A stretch of DNA of 64,000 bases from Camelus dromedarius. Taxonomy: Eukaryota. Below the pieces are notes generated by a model. That model did no database searches, was not told the origin of the DNA, and saw nothing but the letters and a program-made list of their open reading frames with translations. Below, one piece after another: positions 11,430 to 56,942 of this stretch. The stretch's first letter is position 1. Every line of letters starts with the position of its first letter. The stretch spans positions 91,328,001-91,392,000 of the forward strand of contig NC_087472.1 of assembly GCF_036321535.1 (NCBI RefSeq), read 5' to 3'. Both the position numbers and the translations under genes were made by a program.

Positions 11430-12690
11430 TTAATAGCTTTATTTAGCTATAACTGACATGTAATGAAGTTCACGTATTTAAAGTATATAACTTAATGTGT
11501 TTTGACATATGTACACACTCATGAAATCATCACCACAATCAAGATAATGAACATTTTACTCCCAAAAGGTTCTTTATGCCCCTTTGTAATTCTTCTCTCC
11601 TGTACTCTCCACCTCTATTTTTCCAGGCAACCACTGGTGTATTTTTTGTTGCTATTGATTAATTTGTATATTTTAGAGTTTTATGTAAATGGAACCGTAC
11701 AGTATGTACTCATTTCTGATTGGCTTTTTTAACATGGAAAAATTACTTTGACATTCACCCATGTTGTTGTATGTATTACTGCTGTATTCCTTTTTATTGT
11801 TTAGTAATATTTCATTGCATGACATACCAGAATCTTTTAATTGACTCAGTTGTTGACGGACATGTGAGATATTTCTAGTTTTTGGTTACTACAAGTAAAA
11901 TTGTAAAGTATGAACATTTGCATACAAGTCTTTGTGTGGATATGGGCTTTTATTCCTCTTTCATTGGGCAAATAACTAGAAGTAGAATAGTTGGATCATA
12001 TGGTTGGTATATGTTTAATATTTGATAAACTGTAAAACAGTCTTCTGAAGTCATTGTATCATTTTATATTCCCACCATAAATGTATGAGAGCTCTAGTGG
12101 CTTCACATCCTCACCAAGACTTGGTATGGTCAGTCATTTTAATTTTTGACGTTCTAATAGGTGTGTAGTAGTAGTTCATTTTAATTTTAATTTGCATTTC
12201 CTTGAACTAATGATGTTGAACATCTGTTTATGTGCTTATCTGACATCCACTTGTCATCTTTGGTGAAATATCTATTCAGTTTTTTGGCCTATTTTTAAGT
12301 TGGGTTGTTTGTTTTCATATTATTGAGATGTGAGAGTTCTTTATATATTCTGAATACTAATTATTTTAACATATGTGCAATTTGCATATATTTTCTCCCA
12401 GTCTGTGGCTTGTCTTTTTTTTTAATAGTTTTTTTTGGGGGGGTGTTGGAGGTAATGAGGTTTATTTATTTTTTAAATGGAGGTACTAGGGATTGAACTC
12501 AGAACCTTGCTCATGCTAAGCATGCAATCTACTGCTTGAGCTATCCCCTCCCTCTGCGGCTTGTCTTTTTATGCTCTTAACAGTATTTTTTTGAAGAGCA
12601 GAAATTCTTAATTTGGTTGAAGTCCAATTTATCATTTCTTTTATGCAACACGGTTTTACTTTCATATATAAGAAATCATTGCCCAAATGA
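11430..12690 (-). mobile_element. Old L1 (L1MB/MC-like) 3' region
   Basis: catgaaatcatcaccacaatcaagata and taatgatgttgaacatctgtttatgtgc motifs. Contains a SINE at 12420-12553. Confidence 0.8.
12420..12553 (-). mobile_element. tRNA-Ala-derived SINE (Vic-1-like)
   Basis: TSD ctg(t/c)ggcttgtcttttt at 12403-12419 and 12554-12570. Confidence 0.88.
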
Positions 12691-13716: not shown

Positions 13717-14190
13717 TTTTTTCATGTCCCTATTGGCCATTTCTATGTCTTCATTGGAAAACTGCTTGTTCAGATCTTCTGCCCATTTTTGGATTGGGTT
13801 GTTTGTTTTTATGTTATGAAGTAAGCCAGAAAGAGAAAGAAAAATACGACATGATAGCACTTACATGTAGAATCTAAAAAAAGACACAAGTGAACTTATT
13901 TACAAAAAAGAAATAGACTCACAGACACACAGAACAAACTTCTGGTTACCGGGGGAGAAGGGGGTGGGAAGGGATAAATTGGGAGTTCAAGATTTGTAAA
14001 TACTAACTACTATATATAAAACAGATAAACAACAAGTTTATAATTTATAGTACAGGGAACTACATTCAGTATCCTGTAGTAACCTATAATGAAAAAAATA
14101 TGAAAAGGAATATATGACTGAAACATTATGCTGTATACCAGGAACTGACACATTATAAACTGACTATACTTCAATTTAAAAAATGGAAAA
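13717..14190 (+). mobile_element. L1 with 5' inversion
   Basis: Antisense ORF2 piece at 13717-13816 joined to a sense 3'UTR. 15-bp TSD aaaagtatttgctga at 13702-13716 and 14191-14205. Confidence 0.9.
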
Positions 14191-14259
14191 AAAAGTATTT
14201 GCTGAAATTATTGAGGCAAAATCCCACAATCAATAGTACAACTCGGCCAGCACGTCCAG

Positions 14260-14839: not shown

Positions 14840-16333
14840 TCCAGATTCACCAGTAGTGCAAAATTAGCCTAATTACCTGGTACATGACGGGGCTTCAGAC
14901 AAGGCGCACAGGACAGAAAAAAATGGGTTTGTATCTGACAGGAATAAGCTAGGTAATGATATGTGACTGTCCCTGAAGTGAAAGGGAGAAAACTCTGTAG
15001 ATGGAGAGGGGTCTTCTCATAGAGACCAAGGGTGGAAAGCATCTACTCATTTTACAGAGTACAGGCCTAAAACAGAAGGGCTAGAAAAGGTTGCAAAGGC
15101 TACAAGACAAACAGACTGCCACCCTCAACTAATTTCAGGGTGGAGAGGAGGAGAAGAAACTATAGAAAACTGACAGGAGAGAGCCTCCAAACCAGTATCT
15201 GAGGTTTGGTTCGCAGCCCCCAAGGACATCCTTTTATAGCACAGGGTAATGATACATGGTGACTATGATGATACCAATTCGTCAAAAACAATTTATATTT
15301 AAAGCTGTCTGTTAGAAAAATAGGAATTTATTTAGAACAGTTTCCAGCAAACATAGTGACACCCGTGACTTTAAGTTTTAATTCATAAGGAATTAAATTA
15401 TTTGGAAAAAATATTCATAAAGAAAACATTTATTCTACAAATCTGGTGAAGAATTAGAGTGTTACTATTTTTCTCTATACTTCTTTACCTGGTATTTCTT
15501 CTTTAGTCTCAGAAATATCCATAATACAGATGAGAATATGATTTACACCATTGCAGTTGTACAGTGCACCCAGGTACACACTGTGTGTTGTGCAATGCAC
15601 ACAACCACATATGGTATAAACCTACTTTCATGAGACCATCACTTACCTCCACGTAAGCATATGTTGAGTCCAGAAAACCCCATGATATAGACTGATGGTA
15701 ATGGCTTTCCTTGAGCTGTGCAGTCCACTGAAGTATGCGTGAGGTAAGTCTACATTCATAGGGCCATCATTTATTTCTGCACTGAGCATGTAGGAATCCA
15801 GAAAATTTATGGTTTAGAATGTGATGGGAATGGCACTCATTGAGTTATGCAGTACACCTGACTGAACATGGAATAAATCTTCTTCTGTGTGTCCATTAAT
15901 TACCACTACACTGAGGATATAAGTAACTCAGAAAGATACATGGTATAGACTGCGATGCAAATCACATTCATTGAATTGTGCAGTGCACCTAACAGTACCC
16001 AGAACACGTCTACTTTCATGTGTCCTTCACTAACCTCTACACTGGGCATATGCAAATCCAATGTGAACTGTAACACAGGCTGTGATGTGACTGGCACTCC
16101 CAGAGTTATGTAGTTCACTCATCTGTACATGGATTTTTTTTTCTACCTTCATGTGGTCACCACTTACCACCACATTAAACATACAGAGTATCTAGAAAGA
16201 TCCACGGCTAATATTAGGATGTCAATTGCGCTCCTTTAGTTGTACAATGTCCCAAATGTACAAGGAATAAATATACTTTAATATGGCAATCCCCTACTTC
16301 TACACTGAGCATATATGGAGTCAAGAATGATGA

Positions 16334-16489
16334 GGAGCATAGTAGGCGGAGGGTATAGCTCAAGTGGCAGAGTGTACGCTTAGCATGCTTGAGGCCCTGT
16401 GTTCAATCCCCAGTATCTCCTCTAAAAAATATAAATAAACAAACCTAATTACCACCCTCCCCCAAAAAACTAAAACAAAACAAAACAAA
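16334..16489 (+). mobile_element. tRNA-Ala-derived SINE (Vic-1-like) inserted into the tandem array
   Basis: ggagggtatagctcaagtggcagag (A box), gttcaatcc (B box), A-rich tail. TSD aagaatgatga at 16323-16333 and 16490-16500. Confidence 0.9.
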
Positions 16490-17474
16490 AAGAATGATGA
16501 ACATAAACTATGATATGAATGGTAATCCTTGAGTGCACAGTTTGTACAGTCCTTCATGGACTATGTTTACTTTCATGTGATCATCATTTGCCACCACATG
16601 AGCATATGAAGTGTCCAATAAGACCCAGGGCATAGATTGTGATGTGAAAGGCACTTCTACAGTTAACAGTGCACTAACCATACATGGAATAGATCTATCT
16701 CTATGCGGCCATCACTTAGGTCCACTTTAAACAGATGAGAAATCAGGAAAAAAACATGGCTAGTCACCTGTGATGTGAAAAGCACTTGTTTAATGTACAA
16801 TGTACGCTATCATTGAGGAATAAGTCTACTTTATTGTGGCCATCAATTATCTCCACATTGAATATGTGAAGAATCCAGAGAATCTAAGGCATAGATTGTG
16901 ATGTGAATGGCACTTCTTCATCGTGCAGTGCACTGAACTGTACGTGGAATAAGTCTACCTTCATGTGGGCATTGCTTACTACAACTTTAAGAATAGAAGA
17001 GCCCAGAAAACTCCATGGACTAGACCAAACAGTCAATGAAATTCATCCAGCTGTGCAGTGCATACATATAGGTATTAAATACATCTACTTTCATGTGGTG
17101 ATTTCTTACCTCCAAATCGATCATATGAGATTAGAAAGGTGTATCATATGTAATAGTATATGCAAGGCACCTTATGAGTTGTGCAGTGCACCAAAACTAC
17201 AAAAAATATTTCAATTTTATGATGTCTTTCATTACCACCACACTGATCATATGAGAAGTCCAGAAATATCCACAGCGCTACACCGTTGTATAAATGGCAT
17301 TCCTTGAATATGCAGTACAAAGAACCATTCATGGAATAAATCTAGTTCAAGGAAGCCATCATTTTCCTTTACATTGGACATACGAGCAGTCAGGAAAAAT
17401 CCATGATATAGACTGATGTGGATGGCAACCTTTGAGTGTATAGTGCATACAATTTCTCATGGCGTAATCTTTAT

Positions 17475-18309
17475 AAAAAATAATTAACGTAACATTATGC
17501 TAGTTTCAGGTGTACAATGTAATAATTCAATATTTGTATATATTGCAAAAATGATCACAAGTCCAGTTCCCATCCATCACCATACATAGTTATGAAAATT
17601 TTTTTCTCATAATGAGAACTTTCAAGATCCCCTTGCTTAACTGTCAAATACGCAGTGCAGTATTATTAAGTATAGTCACCGTGTTGTACATTATATTCCC
17701 ATGATTTACTCTCTTTATAACTGCAAATTTTCACCTTTTGAGTCCCTTCACCCATTTTACCCATTCCCCATCCCTACTCCCTGTCTCAGATAACCACTGA
17801 TCTGTTCTCTATATTCATAAAATTAGATTTCTTAATTTTTTAAAAATTCAGCATATAAGTGAGATCATATGGTATTTATCTTTTTATGTATTACTTATTT
17901 CATTTAGCATAATGCTCTTGAGGTACATCCATGCCATTGCAAATGGCAAGGCTTCGTTCTTTTTTAGGGCTTAATAGTATTTCATTGCATACATATAACA
18001 CATTTTCTTTATCCATTCATCCATTGATGGACATTTAGGTTGTTTCCATGCCTTGGGTATTGTAAAAAAAATGCTGCAAAGAACATATGGGTGCATATAT
18101 ATTTTCTAATTAGTACCCAGAAGTGGAATTGCTAGATCATATGGTAGTCCTATTTTTAATTTTCTAAGGAAATTAGTCATTGCATCAATTTATATTCCTA
18201 CCAAGTATACAAGGGTTCCCTTTTACCCACATCTTTGCCAATACCTATTTCTTGTCTTTTTGGTAACAGCCACTCTAACAGATGTAACGTGGTTTTGATT
18301 TGCATTTTG
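17475..18309 (-). mobile_element. L1 (L1MA-like) 3' end inserted into the tandem array
   Basis: cattttctttatccattcatccattgatggacatttaggttgtttcca antisense L1 motif. The array unit resumes at about 18310. Confidence 0.88.
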
Positions 18310-19619
18310 CATAATCCTTAATTACTGTGGAAATCACTTCATCCTTGAGCATATGAGGAGTCCAGAAAGTTCTATGCCATAAATTAGGATGTGACTGACA
18401 TCTTTAAGTTTTGTAGTGTACCAAAATTTACATAGAATATATCTATTTGAATGTGACATTTACCTCACATTAAGCATATGGGTTCAGAATTCATCATGCG
18501 ACTGGCAGTGCACTCAACTGTATATACAATAAGTCTAATTTCATTAAGCCACCATTAACCTCCACAGTGACTATATGAAGAATCCAGAAAGACCCATGAC
18601 AAAGCAGAATGTAGCTGTCAGTCCCTGAACAGTACAGTATACTCAACTGTAAGTGAAATAAGTCTAAACTCACATGACCAACCCTTACCTCCACATTAGC
18701 ATATGAGGAGCCCAGAAATAACTATACAATTTACCAAACAGTGAATAGCATCTCTTCAGTTGTACAGTGTACCCAAATGTACAAGGATTAATTGACTTTC
18801 ACGGGGTCATCATTTACTTCCATACTGAGCACATGAGGAGACCAGAAAGATCTATGGCATAGACTAAGATATGACTGGCACCACTAGTGTTTTGCAGTGC
18901 ACCCAAAGTACATGGCACAATCAAACTTCTTATAGCCAACACTTACTTTCACATTGAACATATGAGAAATTCAGAAAGATTCACTGCATAGACTATAATA
19001 TGAACAGAATCCCTTAAGTTGTGGAGTACACCCACATTTATTTTGATGAGGTCATCACTAACTCCACATTGACTATATGAGGAATCCAGAAAGTTACATG
19101 GTATATACTGCATGTAAATGACACCAACTGAGTTGTGTAGTGCAGCCATCAGTACATACCTAAATTCTGAGCATATCAGGAGTCCAGAAAGAGATGCGGT
19201 ATAGGCTGATATGGATGGCATCCTCTGAGTGTGCAGTGCTCACAAGCAAATATGGAATAAGTCTTCTTTTATGTGGCCATCTGTTACCTCCATATCGAGC
19301 ATATAGAGTCCAGAAAGATCTGTGGGATAGAGTAGAATATGAATGGCACCCCCCTTCAGTTTTGCAGTGCACCCAACTGTACATAGTCATCATTTACCTT
19401 CACACTGAGTATAGGAGGAATTAAGAAAGATTCAAGGCATAGACTGTGATATGATTGGTGCCCCTTCATTTGTACAGTCCTTTCAACCATATACAGACTA
19501 AGTCTACTTCTATGTGATACTCACTAATTCACATTCATATATGAGAAGCCTGAAAATTTATGGTGTAGACCATGATAGAAAAAGCACCCCTTCAGGTGTT
19601 CAGTATAGTAATGTGTACA

Positions 19620-20073
19620 TGGTAGACCAAGTCCCAATAGCTATCCATTCTTTTTTCTTCCATGAATTTCAAAGTTCAGATTCCCTGAATTTTAGCCAGG
19701 TAAATAAACACCGAAATAAAAACAATATTTCTCAGCCTCCTTAACTAATTGTGTCTATGTAACTAAATTCTAGATCATGTGTATAATACATATGAAACTT
19801 CCAGATAATACATCTTTTCCTCCCCTACCCCATCTTTCTGCAAACTTGAATGAGACTGATAGTTGAGGCTAAAGCACTCATCTTGGGTCATGAGGCAGAA
19901 GCTACATATTGAGGATGTTAAAGCAACAAACTGTAATAGGCCTGGACTCTTATTGAAGGCAGTCACTATACCAGCTCTAGACTGCTACTTTTCACTGCTC
20001 ATTTGAAATCTATCTTGCTTAAGCCATTGTTAATTTAGGATATGAGTCACACACAGCCATTCCAAATCCTAAC
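19620..20073 (+). mobile_element. MaLR LTR (MLT1J-like)
   Basis: atttctcagcctccttaact, cttgcttaagccattg and ccaaatcctaact motifs. Confidence 0.6.
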
Positions 20074-20476
20074 TGTGATGGTTAATTTTATGTATCAATT
20101 TGACTAGGCTATGGTGCCTGGTTGATTGGTCAAATACCAGTTTAGAGGCTGCTGTAAAGGTATTTTTCAAATGTCTTTAACATAAGTAGACAATAAGTAA
20201 AGCAGATTATTCTCTGTAATGTGGGTGGGCCTTATCCAATCAGTTGAAAGCTGTAAAAGAAAAGAGTGAAGTCCATCTGAGGAATTCTGCCTCCAAGTAT
20301 CTTTTGGACTCAAGACATCAAGTTTTTGCTGGAATTTCCAGCCTATCAGGTTTCCCTGCAGATTTAGGACTTTCCAGCCCCTGCTATCATATGAGGAAAT
20401 TAGAATATGAGGAAATTCTCTCTCTCTCTTTCTCTCTCACACACACAATTTGTTTCTCTGGAGAACTCTAATACCA
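20074..20476 (+). mobile_element. ERVL LTR (MLT2-like)
   Basis: tgtgatggttaattttatgtatcaatttgactagg ... gtttctctggagaactctaat. Confidence 0.85.
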
Positions 20477-21879: not shown

Positions 21880-22152
21880 AGACACACTGTACAAAAGTTA
21901 CTGGGGGGAAAGAGGGTGGGAAGGGATAAATTGGGAGTTCAAGATTTGCAGATAGTAACTACTATATATATAAAATAGATAAACAATAAGTTTCTTCTTT
22001 ATAGCACAGGGAACTATATTCAATATCTTGTAGTACCCTATAATGAAAAAGAATATGAAAACAAATATATGTATGTCTATATGTGACTGAACTATTATGC
22101 TCTACACCAGAAATTGACACATTATAAACTGACCATACTTAAATTAAAAAAA
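21880..22152 (+). mobile_element. L1 3' end
   Basis: gggtgggaagggataaattgggagttcaagatttgcag, same family as 5577-6048. Confidence 0.85.
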
Positions 22153-23052
22153 GTGTAAGAAGTTCCCTAGGCACCTAATTCTTTTCTTTAGAGGTAATCA
22201 AAATGACAAGTTTCATGTGAATTCTTCCAGAGATTTCCCTGCATTTAAAATACATACACACACACAGAGAAGCATACTGCACACATTATGTAAGCCCTTC
22301 TTTCCATTTAACAATATATCTTAAAGACTGTTTCATATCAGTATACATACAGCAGATTCATTTTTTTTTAAAGCATTATGCTCTGTTATATAGATGAACC
22401 ATTATTTACATATCCAACCCCTTAGTGGGGAACACTTGGGTAATTTCCAATCTCTTGGAAAAAAGCTGCAACGGCTATCCTTACACATACATCATTTCAC
22501 ACACATGTGAAAATAACTCTATGATAAATAAGTAAGAGTAAAATCACCCAGTCAGAGGGTTAGTGTAATTAAATTTTTTACAGTTATCTTTGCCCATTTG
22601 TGTAGGGGAAAAATGAAACCACTTTCTAGTTTCAATTTACATTTCTCTAATTACAGTGAAGTTGAACATTTTCTCTCAGCAAGTTTTATAGACTTCATGT
22701 TGACTGTTGCATCTGACACTAGCTGCAGTCTGAACAAATTCTCCATTGCTCTAGACTACCCTCCTCTCCTCAATGTTCACTTAGGGAAGTGTGAAGAGGT
22801 TGGTGTTCTTAAGCTGACAGGTCCCTAGCAGTGAGACCCCAGATGGTACAGCACCACCACAGCTTCTGTCCTCTGCTCTGATTTCCTCCCTTTTGATTCA
22901 CTGATGGTTATCTCAGTTTTTCTCTACCTGAGGATTATGGTATTTTCAGCCCTGTGTGGAAGGAGACGACTAGAAGTTTCTTCTACTCATCTTGGCTGGC
23001 CAGGGTTTTCAAGGGTCTCTGTGTTGGTCAGTCAGAGAAACAGAACTACCAG

Positions 23053-23814: not shown

Positions 23815-23957
23815 TTTTTTGGCTTTTTTGGAGGGGGGCTAATTAGGTTTATTTATTATTATTATATTTTATTTAGAGGAGGTACTGGGGATCAAACCCA
23901 GGACCTCGTGCATACTAAGCATGCGCTCTACCACTGAGCTATATCCTCCCCCTCCCC
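23815..23957 (-). mobile_element. tRNA-Ala-derived SINE (Vic-1-like)
   Basis: ggaggtactggggatcaaacccaggacctcgtgcatactaagcatgcgctctaccactgagctatatcctcccc. Confidence 0.9.
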
Positions 23958-24491
23958 TTTCACTAATTTCTACTTGGAGGCTGCATCTTCATTCTTCATG
24001 ATGCAGCTCTAATGTTTATTCACCTGTCAAATCTCCCTCAAGCTTTTTGCCCATAACTAGTTACTTTAGTAGCATCTTTTAAAATAATTTTCCTACTAAA
24101 ATATTTATGCAATTTTAACTTGAAACTACTTATGACTCAACCTTGGTAGTCTCTAACTGGGAAATCAAACACAGACTTCCAAGTCTTGTGATTGATGGCA
24201 GGAGCCATCTCCTAGCCTCTAGCACTGGGGATAAGGTAAAAAAAAAATACTTAAAATGTGCATGGTGAAATGACCAAACAGATAAAGAAGCAATGATGTA
24301 GAAGACAAGACTGCATGTGGGAGGTTTATGGCAATGCCACAGCCGAAGGCATGGAGAAATGACAAGCACTGCCCTAGTTCTTGGAGTGACAAGTTATCTC
24401 AGAAGATTAAGGAGGCAGTCTGCTGGAATCCTTGACTTCTTAGTCAAAGTGCTTTGATCAAGGTGCATTTGAGGGGAAGAGGAACAGTTCC

Positions 24492-24956
24492 TGTGAAGGA
24501 AAAGCTGGGCTGGTCTAACAAGGTAACTCACAAGTCTAGGAATGTGAAGGAGAGGCTGGGCTGGGCTAACAAGATAACTCACAAGTCTAAGTAATGGAAT
24601 ACTGATCTGAGTTCTGCTGGACTAACTTGTAAATCTAAGTTAATTAGTGTTGGTTTGCTGTTTATATTTTTTTGCTAGCCAGCTGGATTTTCAAAGATAC
24701 ATATCTGGCTTTGGAATGTTGGTTTGCTGCCTCCCCGCCTCCACTTTTGTGATGATAATGCTGCTAAAGCTGTTCCATGCCTATTGGCCGAATACCCCAA
24801 GCTTGTACTTTACCCTACAAAACCTCATGCGCACGTCTTGGAGGTGCTCAGAGCTTCGGAGAAGAAGCCCCTCTGAGCCCGCCAGCGTAATACATCTGAG
24901 TACTCCAACCCTCCGAGTGGTGCTTGTTTCTTGACTGGCCTGTCGTTTCCGTAACA
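24492..24956 (+). mobile_element. Young ERV1-type solo LTR
   Basis: TGT...ACA ends, perfect 4-bp TSD ttcc (24488-24491, 24957-24960), retained CpGs and a 51-bp tandem duplication at the 5' end. Confidence 0.88.
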
Positions 24957-26307
24957 TTCCTAAAATTGGAACCTGTCCCAGTCTGGGCAGTGGGCTGAGG
25001 GTTTTTGTGGAATAGCGACTTGGGAAGGGATGCCCTAGATGATTCTGAACTGAGGCTACCCTGAGGAGGGGGCTCTCAGGTCTTGGATTTCTTGGCTGTT
25101 TGAGGATGTCTGGATAGACACAAAGCTGTGCCTTGTGGGTGTGTATTTACAATAACAAACGAGGCACTCAGTATACTAGTGGATAAATAATAGAAAGTAT
25201 CTCTAGCTTCAAACTGGGCAATCATTAGGAAGATATATATATATATGGAAATGTGTATGGTACATTTCTGTAAACAGTTTTTTCCCTGGCTTTTCTCCTG
25301 TTCCTTGAATTTCTATAATTTTGTCTTTTATACATGGCAATAGTCCAATCATTTTCAAAAGACTTTAAAAAGCAGTTGTAGGTTTACAGAAAAATTAAGC
25401 AGAAGGTACAGAGATTTCCCATTCACTCTCTGCCCTCACAATGCTCATTTTATTTTCCACTTTATTTTCATATATAAGCAAAACATATTAATTATAAAAA
25501 GTAAACCTCAAATAAGCAAAAAGGGAGGGGAAGGAAAAACTTTTCCCATATATTTTAAAGATAACCACTGTTAATTTTTGTTGGCTCCCCTTATGTAGAT
25601 AAAAATTTTTCTTAATAATCTTGCTTATAACATAATTGGGTGGCAAATAACTTCTTATACACTATAGTTTTATTTTTCACAGATTTACTCTTTTTTGTAC
25701 AAAAGGTAACTCATGCACAAAATATCAATTTCAAAAGTCAGCAAAGGGTATATAGCTTCTTTCATACCTTCCCAGATATAATGTATGTATTCAGAATTGT
25801 TTATATGTGTGTGTGTGTATACATATACATTTCCCCCCTACATAAATGGTAGCACACCTGAAACATTACTCAGGATCTTTCTTGTTTATTACTTATGATA
25901 GATCTTGGAGATCTACTACATTTTAGTTCACTGAAATTCTCAATACTTTTGCTAACAATTTCTCAATAATTTTACTTCTGGCAAGAACTATTAAAGTCAA
26001 AGATAACTTCTTCTGAGTAAGTCTAATTGAGACGATTAAGCAATTAAGGAGAAGATAATGCCTTTTGAATGATACTCAGAATGGCTGGTAGCAGAAGGCA
26101 CAGGAATGGGGATTAGGCAGAGAGCTGGGACTGTGGATTGGATGGGAGGGGACCGGCCAGAGGCTGGGGAAGGGTGGGGAAGACGCTGATCAGTTCTAGC
26201 TGGGAAGAGAGGCTGCTGGGGAGAATGGGAGTGGCTGAGGTCAGTGACTAGAGATTGGAAAGGAAAGGGAAATTTGTGGGGAAGAATGAGCAAGAACTAT
26301 TGAAAGC

Positions 26308-26750
26308 ATTTGCAGCAACATGGATGGACCTGGAGATCGTCATTCTAAGTGAAATAAGCCAGAAAGAGAAAGAAAAATTCCATATGATATCACTTATATG
26401 TGGAATCTAAAAAAAAAAAAGGCAAACAAACTTATCTACAAAACAGAAACAGACTAACAGACATAGAAAACAAACTTAATGGTTACAGGGGAGGGGGGAA
26501 GGGGGTGGGAAGGGATAAATTGGGAGTTTGAGATTTGCAGATACTAACTACTATATATAAAACAGATAAAGAACAGGTTCATACTGTATAGCACAGAGAA
26601 CTATATTCAATATCTTGTAGTAACTTATGGTGAAAAAGAATGTGAAAATGAATATATGTACGTTCCTATATGACTGAAGTATTGTGCTGTACACCAGAAA
26701 TTGACACTACATTGTAAACTGATTATACTTCAATAAAATATTTTAAAAAC
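26308..26750 (+). mobile_element. L1 3' end
   Basis: TSD aactattgaaagc at 26295-26307 and 26751-26763. Confidence 0.9.
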
Positions 26751-28939
26751 AACTATTGAAAGCTTAAAGAATCTGGTTTTGTTCCACTGTGTATGTGTAA
26801 AGGAGAACCCTGCCTAGCTGCAGTCTGCAATTTATGTCTCATGGCGCATCCTCATGGCCTGTCTCTCCCAGCTACTGTCCTAGTTGCTTCTGCCTCTGGC
26901 AATCCTCCCTCCCACAGCCAGGCTGCCCTGAAGTGAGGGGACTGTCAAGGCCAGTCTGCACCTGTTCTGTGTGGCTCCGCTTGAGGTGACTTCTTTACCA
27001 TGGCTGGGACAGACGTCAGGATAGAATCAATCCCTCCTTCCCTGAGACTCTTTTCCTGATCTCTCAGGGGACCCAGAACATTCATTCAGCACCCTTCCTA
27101 GTATAGTGCTGGAGCTGCCACTTCTCACCGATCCCCTAGTCTTTGCCCCGAGGGGAAGGGCTTTGGGAATTAATGGCCGCTCCCCGCTTTCTGAGGGAAC
27201 AGGTCTTCTGCCAACCTTCTGAGGGGCCCAGGCTATACTTGTGTTATAACTCTCTGGCTGGGGATTTCTGCTTACCCCCAGTGACAGCACTCAAGTTGGA
27301 TCAATGTATCTGTCTCCTGCGTGAAAGGAAGGATTTTATTCTGTACAAGGTCTAAAATAGTTCTCAGGACAGGCTCTGTGTTCAAAAAAACATTGAGCAG
27401 CGAGAAATAATGAGCAGATAGAAACGTGGTTAGGCCCCCAGGCTAGCACAAATAAGCAGAATGAAGGCGGAGTCTATATTAAAAGAACAATAGATCAGAA
27501 CCACTAGGTGTAGCTATACTTCTGGGGGAAATGTCTTCAGCGGTTGCTGACAGCTCTAAATGGGAGAGTAGATCCTTCCAGTTCCAAGCTCCAGGTGGAG
27601 TCCATCTGGGAAGAGATTGGAATTCTAGGGTTGGAAAATAGCCTGTAAGGGGGAGTGGGAAGGCTTTAGGAGGCAGAAACCCCTACTGGGTTTGGAGCTG
27701 AGCGGCTGCGGTGGGCATGAGGGAGTTGATGAGCCTGGGAAAAGGAAGGTTCCTGTGGAGAGGACAGGTTGATGGTCTCTTCCTTTCTCATCCATGTCAC
27801 CAGGGCACTTCTGCATGTGATAAGCAGAGAATGAAACCGAAGGGGGAAGAGGACAAGTGGGAGGAGAAAGAGGAGGATGAATGGCAGCTAAGAAGTTTTA
27901 GGTCCTGAGTTACAGAACAGGTTTTTCTCTTCTCTACTTCCTTGCCTGTAGATGCTGTTGACCACTGAGGGAGGGGTTTCCTGCCCATCAAGTCCCTTCT
28001 CTTCTTACAGAGACCCTCCACCCTGCTTTGATCTAGGAAAGGCAAGAAGGCGCAGTCAGGACTTGGGAAGGGAGATTGAGAAAAGATGGAAGTGTGGCAG
28101 GGAAGTAGAGTCAGAGTTAGCTGCACGTCCACAGCAGGTGAGGGGGAGGAGACAAGGGAGGAATTCCATGGTCCAAAGGGAGGTATTTCTTAAGCACACA
28201 GGGAAGGACCAAGTGGGGGGCTTGTTTGCATTTTTATGCTTTTTCATAGGTAAAAATGAATAACCATTCTTCTAAGTGAGGAGTCTCCCATTGGCTGGAG
28301 AAAAGGAGTTGCACTTAGGAAAAAGAGATTTTTGTCTTGGGAGTTAATATATAAACCCATTTTAGTGGATTGAGTAACACTATGACTACCATTATTTTTA
28401 GAAAAAGGAAATATGCCCCAAGATGACTAATTCTGGTGGTGGTAAATGGTAAAGGAAATGGTTCTATTGTCACATTCATAATTGTTCCAGTGCCCTGGTC
28501 TTCTCCAGGAACAGGTGTGCTTTTCAAAGGATGTCTGTCATATGCTCAGTATGACAAAGACCACATCACTTTGCCATCTGCAGACTTGGCCACCACATCC
28601 TGATCTTGAAAATGTGAAATGTAAACCGAACCATGCTCCTTTTAGGACTCTATTCTTAGTAATTTATGTGAATTAACTTCTAGCCTAAATTTCCACATAC
28701 TTAAGAAGGTTTTCCATATATGCTTTTGCCACTCCTTAAGAAAACGAAACAAACCAAGACCTTTTGATCGCATGATGCTTTATATGCAAACAGGCAAGAG
28801 TATGTGTTTGATGTATTTAAGTAGTTCTTTTATTCAAAAAATGATTACAAGTATGCCAGATATATATATATATATATATATATAAAATGAGAAGTGTATA
28901 TATATATACTTCTCATTAGTGTTTCTAATTAGGGGATGT

Positions 28940-37179: not shown

Positions 37180-37302
37180 TTTTTTATTTATTATTTAATA
37201 AATTTAAATTTTATTTATTTTTTAATCAAGGTACTGGGGATCAAACCCAGGACCTCATGCATGCTAAGCTGGAACTCTACCACTGAGTTGTAGCCCCCAG
37301 CC
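37180..37302 (-). mobile_element. tRNA-Ala-derived SINE (Vic-1-like)
   Basis: ggtactggggatcaaacccaggacctc. TSD catagacatt at 37164-37173 and 37303-37312. Confidence 0.85.
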
Positions 37303-56039: not shown

Positions 56040-56942
56040 ATGCTGTCAGAAGGGTATCTCAGTGGACTTGCCTACCGGAATGAGACCCTCTGGAGTTGTA
56101 CATCTTATAACGAGCAGGTGGCTGAGGAAAAGGAAGAGGAGACCGAAGCCACAGCTGCATCTGCTCTTTCCTATTCCTCTGTGGATGAAACACAAGTCCA
56201 AAGTCTCTATGTGAGCTGCAAATCCTCTGGCAAGTTTATTTCTTCCGTGCGTTCAAGAGAGAGCCAACGCAGTAGAAATCCGAGAATCACAGTGGTGCAG
56301 ACAAACCCTAACCCTGTCTTTGAAAGCCCAAACTTGGCTGCAGTTGAAATATATAGAGACCCCAGCAGAGAGACCTATTTGGTTCCACCTTCCTGCAAGA
56401 GTATTTGCAAGAATTACAATGACTTACATATTGCAGGGGGCCAGGTGATGGCAATTAATTCAGTGACAACAGATTTTCCCTCCGAGAGCAGTTTTGAATG
56501 TGGTCCTTTGCTGAAATCGTCTGAGATTCCTTTGCCCATGGAGGATTCCATTTCCACTCAGCCCAGCGACTTTCCACCAAAACCGATCCAGCGGTATTCA
56601 TCCTACTGGAGAATAACCAGCATCAAAGAGAAAAGCAGTCTGCAAATGCAGAAGCCTATTTCGAATGCAGTGCTGAATGAATACCTGGAGCAGAAGGTGG
56701 TGGAGTTATATAACCAATACATCATGGACACTGTGTTTCAGGACAGTTCTCCTACCCAGATTCTGGCATCTGAACTCATCATGACAAGTGTGGACCAAAT
56801 TAGTATTCAAGTCTCTAGAGAGAAGAACCTGGAGACCTCCAAAGCCAGGGATATAGTCATTAACCGCCTCTTACAGTTGGTGTCAACTGAAATCAGCACT
56901 CCTAGTCTCCATATTTCTCAGTATAGCAACGTGAATCCATAG
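56040..56942 (+). CDS. TASL: TLR adaptor interacting with SLC15A4 on the lysosome (CXorf21), 300 aa, single coding exon
   Basis: Only long ORF in the window. N-terminus MLSEGYLSGL, internal CKSICKNYNDL and PISNAVLNEYLEQKVVELY, and C-terminus STPSLHISQYSNVNP match recalled human TASL. pLxIS motif SLHIS is encoded at 56904-56918. Confidence 0.97.
   Translation: MLSEGYLSGLAYRNETLWSCTSYNEQVAEEKEEETEATAASALSYSSVDETQVQSLYVSCKSSGKFISSVRSRESQRSRNPRITVVQTNPNPVFESPNLAAVEIYRDPSRETYLVPPSCKSICKNYNDLHIAGGQVMAINSVTTDFPSESSFECGPLLKSSEIPLPMEDSISTQPSDFPPKPIQRYSSYWRITSIKEKSSLQMQKPISNAVLNEYLEQKVVELYNQYIMDTVFQDSSPTQILASELIMTSVDQISIQVSREKNLETSKARDIVINRLLQLVSTEISTPSLHISQYSNVNP

Follow-up and report, generated by a model that had tools for sequence, protein, structure and literature searches.

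A decayed tandem array upstream of TASL in the dromedary, probably derived from the transposon MER91C

A 131-bp tandem array upstream of TASL

A tandem array of 25 diverged head-to-tail units with a consensus of 131 bp was resolved at 15505..19620 (plus strand) of the window, the 64-kb stretch of dromedary DNA analysed here. Each unit carries a segment that closely matches the catalogued transposon MER91C, and most likely the array arose by tandem amplification of transposon DNA and has since decayed neutrally. It lies approximately 36 kb upstream of the coding exon of TASL (56040..56942, plus strand; Pfam PF15133, E 1.8e-122), and from this neighbour, which the available part of PMC10176412 places at human Xp21.2, we infer that the array is X-linked.

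The array was confirmed as a genuine repeat, delimited by periodicity, a unit HMM and the alignment of the units. At a distance of 120–139 bases, 86 6-mer matches were counted in the left block and 67 in the right block, against means of 12.4 and 8.8 and maxima of 23 and 25 in 100 shuffles, and across the 64 kb only 2-kb segments starting at 15001–19001 held more than 30 such matches. The HMM found 27 matches in 15511–19657 and one weak match elsewhere in the window (E 0.89). The 25 units and their consensus were obtained after excising a SINE, an L1 fragment and an internal 31-bp duplication in unit 1 (15548..15615, plus strand), which spans the core motif discussed below and was recognised from a spacing-31 repeat family and the HMM. 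Units 1–13 start at 15511, 15672, 15799, 15930, 16062, 16194, 16324, 16617, 16746, 16877, 17005, 17133, and 17262, and units 14–25 at 17393, 18364, 18485, 18586, 18714, 18844, 18973, 19088, 19186, 19312, 19424, and 19550, the last ending at approximately column 73–75. These results bear out the preliminary description of this DNA, which reported about 25 diverged head-to-tail units of about 131 bp and whose by-eye consensus differs from the computed one only at the near-tied columns 23, 39, 79, and 113. Its observation that no ORF crosses the array also holds, the longest open frame being 139 aa (16888–17307) without a match in Pfam. Tandem Repeats Finder, which it proposed as a check, was run on the window and missed the array entirely because the units are too decayed. 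At least 0.95 of the words searched were contained in 14 of 24 sequencing-run rows (8 studies, 3 organism labels; the run kind is guessed or unknown, and two rows may be the source of the present DNA), which makes an artefact of assembly less likely. In six rows of RNA or guessed-RNA runs, 0.12–0.29 of the words were contained, which gave no evidence of expression.

Two elements with target-site duplications (TSDs) are inserted in the array; the preliminary description had noted both, the SINE as TSD-flanked. A tRNA-derived SINE in unit 7 (16323..16500, plus strand; tRNA-like head at 16349–16421) is flanked by a TSD matching at 11 of 11 bases (16323–16333 and 16490–16500) and has three further copies in the window with 75–79% identity. 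Unit 14 is interrupted at 17462..18320 by what is, judging from the typical ends of L1 elements, probably an L1 3′ fragment on the minus strand, presumably of the L1MA subfamily, with a TSD matching at 10 of 12 bases (17462 and 18309). Unit 14 continues in register past this fragment, for which seven other matches (67–76%) were found in the window. At its right end, the array stops at an LTR-like flank (19618..20075, plus strand, with approximate boundaries read from the sequence), which we assume to be MLT1J-like; the HMM scan detected no array unit beyond it, and a scan of the window no second copy of it. Rfam at the gathering score reported tRNA-like SINE heads only.

The MER91C-like segment and its 72-bp neighbour

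Columns 15–73 of the consensus match positions 65–132 of MER91C at 56 of 59 bases (55 of 59 with a second consensus build) in an alignment made by eye rather than computed, which contains identical stretches of 16, 16, and 13 bases as well as gaps of 1, 1, and 7. The reference is the 140-bp palindrome published in supplementary table 2 of PMC5424272. By this match, each unit holds the palindrome centre of MER91C with a single arm, to which 72 bp of other DNA are attached; in unit 10, for example, the MER91C-derived segment occupies 16890..16947 (plus strand). The second arm is reduced to 6 bases per unit, and the terminal 8 bases are missing from the consensus. The match is supported by the published primer for miR-652-3p, a MER91C-derived microRNA (PMC5424272), which agrees with the consensus at 17 of 22 positions, a score equalled in 1 of 20,000 shuffles. 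In the window the primer matches best at 18874..18895 (plus strand; 18 of 22), within unit 19 and at the column where the site is expected, and sites with at least 14 matches lie inside the array in 9 of 13 cases on the plus strand, all in register, and in none of 5 on the minus strand. The preliminary description held that the unit matches no repeat class; with 59 of its 131 bp matching a catalogued dispersed element, the very outcome that it had named as contradicting it, this claim falls.

Whereas MER91C is dispersed, the present units stand in tandem at one locus, with a 7-base internal deletion and foreign DNA attached. A search of the array flanks found no inverted arm, left arm or founder TSD; the ends of the founder are lost, leaving no end pair for comparison. 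Insertions of hAT elements are marked by 8-bp TSDs, and MER91C belongs to the Tip100 group, a placement documented for MER91A and MER91B. MER91C itself is grouped among the hAT families (PMC5753468). Pattern scans for dispersed copies gave one locus in viral contigs, 77 in metagenome contigs and none in prokaryote genomes. These 78 loci were taken as chance: the top unit-HMM score, 21.5 bits, covers no more than the motif, and a palindromic element was seen at none of the best 20 of the 78.

The remaining 72 bp (columns 74–131 and 1–14; for example 16948..17018, plus strand) match 24 times in the array and have no copy elsewhere in the window (best outside match, E 0.18). By eye, a degenerate extra copy seemed conceivable to the left of unit 1, but it was rejected, as 607 of 653 background tiles scored as high. 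It is quite unlikely that all 131 bp come from the interior of a longer transposon related to MER91C and not yet catalogued, which would make the 72-bp half transposon DNA as well. Such an origin would fit the equal divergence of the two halves, the lack of an assigned origin for the 72 bp and the lack of a full extra 72-bp copy before unit 1; however, a co-amplified flank also predicts equal divergence, the junctions sit within the MER91C palindrome, and neither half was found elsewhere in the 64 kb, which is a small sample.

For an array derived from MER91C itself, the following history can be proposed. A copy would have integrated upstream of TASL in some early mammal, and the perfect palindrome would have been stripped of the greater part of one arm, of its terminal 8 bases and of approximately 7 bases in a short internal direct repeat. 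The remnant with its flank, 131 bp in all, may then have multiplied rapidly to about 25 units, early in the life of the element, through slippage or unequal crossing-over; a single early burst is suggested because the divergence of the units is star-like. The units later diverged independently with a GC-to-AT bias, and the L1 and then the SINE inserted. In the available text of PMC9659126, transposon-derived repeats make up approximately 23% of human tandem arrays. The present array resembles the members of this class (Giordano et al. 2007, PMC1914374; PMC9659126, in the part available), being a head-to-tail transposon fragment with younger insertions: its units are head-to-tail above chance and carry a fragment of a catalogued transposon. 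Unlike the repeats of Giordano et al., it has decayed beyond what Tandem Repeats Finder can detect; the term MER91 is absent from their datasets S3 and S4, and none of the four chrX entries in S3 lies near TASL.

Divergence of the units and a better-kept core

The units differ from the consensus by a median of 26.0% (quartiles 22.2–28.5), close to the 26.5% of dispersed human MER91C copies (1,231 elements), in a comparison that mixes lineages and methods. GC-to-AT changes were seen at 413 of 1,387 sites and AT-to-GC changes at 206 of 1,673, and several deletions of 15–32 bases occur among the units. The founder CpG at columns 65–66 has decayed in both directions (TG in 9 units, CA in 6, CG in none). 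MER91C and other columns diverged by 26.8% and 24.2%, respectively (p 0.11). In satellites under concerted evolution, neighbours are more alike than distant units; here, no homogenisation of neighbours was detected (lag-1 p 0.72), nor any linked variants among 1,035 column pairs beyond the CpG pair. A higher-order repeat, for which one of 12 lags (lag 7) reached p 0.028, was rejected. The star-like divergence, the lag-1 result and the two later insertions uphold the earlier view of the array as old and no longer homogenising, and a pan-eutherian age is plausible because of the age of MER91C.

Column rates are overdispersed (chi2 213 on 127 df; 203 on 121 after CpG exclusion), and columns 46–55 are better kept than the rest (permutation p 0.022; 0.040 without CpG-like columns), although this column range was picked post hoc. 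These columns carry 39 changes where trinucleotide context predicts 69, none of 60 realigned neutral simulations was equally extreme, and at columns 53 and 55 all 25 units share the same base. A 12-base core, also picked post hoc, is present with at most one mismatch in 9 of 25 units against 2.8 expected. An array of the same origin might have been recruited as a set of clustered protein-binding sites, formed by the small palindromic core at columns 46–59, with the cluster enhancing or silencing expression in the TASL–GK domain. The kept columns and core argue for this, and two published observations are compatible with it: the sister family MER91B gives CTCF sites conserved in human and mouse (PMC4248313, available part), and predicted human enhancers upstream of TASL, with no reported tie to the array, contact NR0B1 after rearrangement (PMC10176412, available part). 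However, of about eight constraint tests the core is the single positive, and alignment anchoring (7 gaps at column 46) may inflate its conservation. Overall divergence equals that of dispersed copies, two insertions and the 15–32 base deletions were tolerated, and 7 of 25 units retain an intact metal-response-type motif, at background (4.4 expected, 95% range 1–8). We therefore consider co-option unlikely, and it is likewise improbable that the half-MER91C array forms a phased cluster of about 25 candidate binding sites that is kept across placentals and regulates the TASL–GK domain.

Hairpins, CTCF sites and wider context

MER91C is also the parent of X-linked microRNAs, the MIR-506 family, which is expressed in the testis and maps between SLITRK2 and FMR1, miR-513 and miR-652 (PMC11031087, PMC3840687, PMC5424272), and these have multiplied locally on the X chromosome, as has the array if its likely X linkage holds. 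With this shared parent and a decayed equivalent of the miR-652-3p arm in each unit, a small-RNA locus akin to the MIR-506 cluster or miR-652 could be envisaged, but it is extremely unlikely. Those microRNAs have two arms and stable precursor hairpins, whereas the units have one arm each, all head-to-tail, and so cannot form the hairpin that yields MER91C-derived microRNAs. No such hairpin was seen: folding z-scores on the two strands are 0.0 and +1.8 for the consensus and average −0.2 and −0.3 for the units, a short stem is paired in 132 of 185 cells against 133 when shuffled (p 0.81), and Rfam returned no microRNA match at E up to 10.

DXZ4, FIRRE and XIST contain local repeats that are locus-specific on the X chromosome, and the array, presumably also X-linked, is likewise a locus-specific tandem repeat. 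By this analogy, the preliminary description had suggested a relic regulatory or chromatin element or a repeat domain of an lncRNA; a chromatin-architecture array bound by CTCF in the manner of DXZ4 and FIRRE, or such an lncRNA domain, was considered here. The likely X linkage, the CTCF sites of MER91B elements and the effect of these elements on predicted folding would favour such a role, which is nevertheless very unlikely. With a 13-base IUPAC pattern as the CTCF core, in place of a weight matrix, none of 25 units had a site with at most two mismatches against 17 of 446 background tiles, and the consensus is three mismatches away. The array is short (4 kb), AT-rich (34–39% GC) and unhomogenised, and the human TAD boundary separates NR0B1 from TASL and is thus across TASL from the array (PMC10176412, available part). 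With CTCF cores not above background and folding at shuffle level, the analogy with DXZ4, FIRRE and XIST finds no support; what survives of the earlier interpretation is an old, unhomogenised array, and what does not is the missing repeat class.

A literature search, with most subscription journals outside its scope, found no description of the array. As a fossil it is of little weight and adds a further case, if a clean one, to the known tandem arrays of transposon origin. Binding at the better-kept core would give it greater importance, given its place upstream of TASL in a domain with enhancers discussed in sex-reversal rearrangements; predicted enhancers of the TASL–GK region have been linked to mis-expression of NR0B1 and to XY gonadal dysgenesis. 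Besides the MIR-506 cluster, the array would be a second X-linked site of local MER91C multiplication. The consensus of its 25 units recovers the parent element at approximately 95% identity, providing a built-in record of independent neutral change.

Detection and structure of the array

The array, about 36 kb upstream of the TASL coding exon (56040-56942) and on the same strand, is inferred to be X-linked from the location of human TASL at Xp21.2. It lies at window positions 15505-19620, where the preliminary description placed it, and was recovered by 6-mer recurrence, a repeat finder, and an HMM of the repeat built by iteration from one unit. Exact 6-mers recurring at a distance of 120-139 numbered 86 in the left block versus a shuffled mean of 12.4, and 67 in the right block versus 8.8. 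The repeat finder returned families at a 126-134-base spacing; Tandem Repeats Finder did not detect the array. When the window was searched with the HMM, 27 matches were found within 15511-19657 and none with E < 0.89 outside it. Two pairs of matches each represent one unit, namely unit 1, which is internally duplicated, and unit 14, which is split by an L1, and merging them gives 25 units with a 131-bp consensus, to which individual units are 66-83% identical.

Both insertions reported earlier were confirmed. A tRNA-derived SINE, which we take to be camelid, lies within unit 7 with a target-site duplication of 11/11, and an L1 fragment, presumably L1MA, lies within unit 14 with one of 10/12. 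The duplication in unit 1 (15548-15615) is a 31-bp repeat that covers the core motif (columns 46-55 of the consensus). Nowhere else in the array is the folding energy as low as in this duplication, where it reaches -33 to -34 kcal/mol per 100 nt on the minus strand. The last unit stops at the end of its MER91C part (within 19590-19630), adjoining an LTR-like flank that we assume to be MLT1J. The 8 bases that follow match the missing MER91C end at 4/8 positions by eye and also resemble the start of this flank. No inverted arm of MER91C was detectable at either flank of the array.

Relation of the unit to MER91C

Identification of the unit started from a suspected resemblance to MER91C, a palindromic non-autonomous DNA transposon, and to the microRNA derived from it, miR-652; this resemblance was then tested. 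In a by-eye alignment with the 140-bp MER91C consensus printed in the supplement of PMC5424272, columns 15-73 match MER91C positions 65-132 with 56/59 identities, including uninterrupted stretches of 16, 16, and 13 bases, and three gaps (1, 1, and 7); the HMM-stage consensus gives 55/59, the difference being one tied column. The published 22-base miR-652-3p primer matches the array consensus at 17/22 positions, a computed score attained by only 1 of 20,000 shuffles. The best primer site on either strand of the window (18/22) is in unit 19, and 9 of the 13 plus-strand sites with at least 14 matches fall in the array, all at one column, as do none of the five minus-strand sites. The alignment and the primer test together indicate that the unit contains the palindrome centre and one arm without its last 8 bases. 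Outside the array, the window contains no copy of the other 72 bp of the unit (best E 0.18). Judged from sequence, the array almost certainly originated from MER91C, and RepeatMasker is expected to annotate fragments of MER91C in some of its units. The preliminary description is upheld as an observation; its interpretation holds in part, but not in the statement that the array matches no recognised repeat class.

This array is a further example of the known class of tandem arrays derived from transposons: 40 human clusters are listed in PMC1914374, whose datasets S3 and S4 do not contain the term MER91, and about 23% of human tandem arrays are transposon-derived (cited in PMC9659126). An earlier X-linked multiplication of MER91C is described for the MIR-506 family, whose copies keep both arms (PMC3840687, PMC4105748, PMC11031087), whereas the array units have one. 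We found no account of the present array in the literature searched.

Amplification and decay

The array consensus differs from MER91C by about 5%, and the units diverge from the consensus by a median of 26.0% (quartiles 22.2-28.5; Kimura median 0.33), close to the mean of 26.5% given for dispersed human MER91C copies (PMC1914374), although the compared divergences differ in lineage and method. These values suggest that amplification rapidly followed insertion of MER91C, for which an age of 100-150 million years is given (PMC11031087). The unit is composite, its copies stand head to tail and have decayed independently, and the two insertions came later. Adjacent units do not have more derived bases in common than randomly chosen ones (lag 1 p 0.72). 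Among 1,035 column pairs, subfamilies are absent apart from one CpG pair, at which 9 units have TG, 6 have CA, and 0 have CG, as expected from unit-by-unit decay of a methylated founder CpG. Base changes are biased, with GC-to-AT at 413/1,387 and AT-to-GC at 206/1,673, and the MER91C half and the other half are alike in divergence (26.8% versus 24.2%, p 0.11). Units 19-23 (18844-19422) are nearer the consensus (Kimura 0.20-0.27 versus the median of 0.33), which may reflect chance or local late exchange; three of them bear deletions of 15-32 bases.

Perfect palindromes tend to lose an arm, and the inserted MER91C would have lost most of one arm plus its end. The remnant and adjacent DNA would then have been multiplied about 25 times via slippage or unequal crossing-over. 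Because the copies have no ends, they are unlikely to have arisen by transposition.

Probable neutrality and neighbouring features

The MER91C-derived array is probably neutral now. The units were scanned for CTCF sites because MER91B supplies conserved ones (PMC4248313, PMC10589630). A 13-base CTCF core was found with at most two mismatches in 0/25 units versus 17/446 background tiles. No Rfam microRNA match was found in the array, the units fold at the shuffle level, and a short stem is paired in 132/185 cells versus 133 when shuffled. The metal-response-type motif of the consensus is intact in 7/25 units versus 4.4 expected. Co-option of the array as a cluster of binding sites is improbable, yet two results speak against a purely neutral reading: column rates are overdispersed over the whole unit, and columns 46-55 are more conserved than under a simple neutral model (p 0.022; p 0.040 without CpG-like columns; realigned simulations as extreme, 0/60; 39 changes versus 69 expected with trinucleotide context). 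However, the latter is one among about eight tests, its columns were picked post hoc, and gaps concentrate at column 46, so we take it as a lead.

Papers on rearrangements in humans locate predicted enhancers upstream of TASL, and their main text does not mention repeats (PMC10176412, PMC9820669). In the window, a purine-skewed, GC-richer stretch at 26000-28200 (GC up to 0.50 versus about 0.36 typically) could be a candidate regulatory region (promoter or enhancer) upstream of TASL. Three further copies of the tRNA-derived SINE (12431-12551, 23824-23952, and 37210-37298) are 75-79% identical to that in the array. Two similar L1-like 3' ends in the same orientation (13945-14192 and 21897-22161; 77-90% identity) flank the array about 7.95 kb apart. 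A 51-bp unit occurs in two copies with 91% identity at 24492-24589, inside a stretch (about 24190-24960) that we take to be LTR-like.
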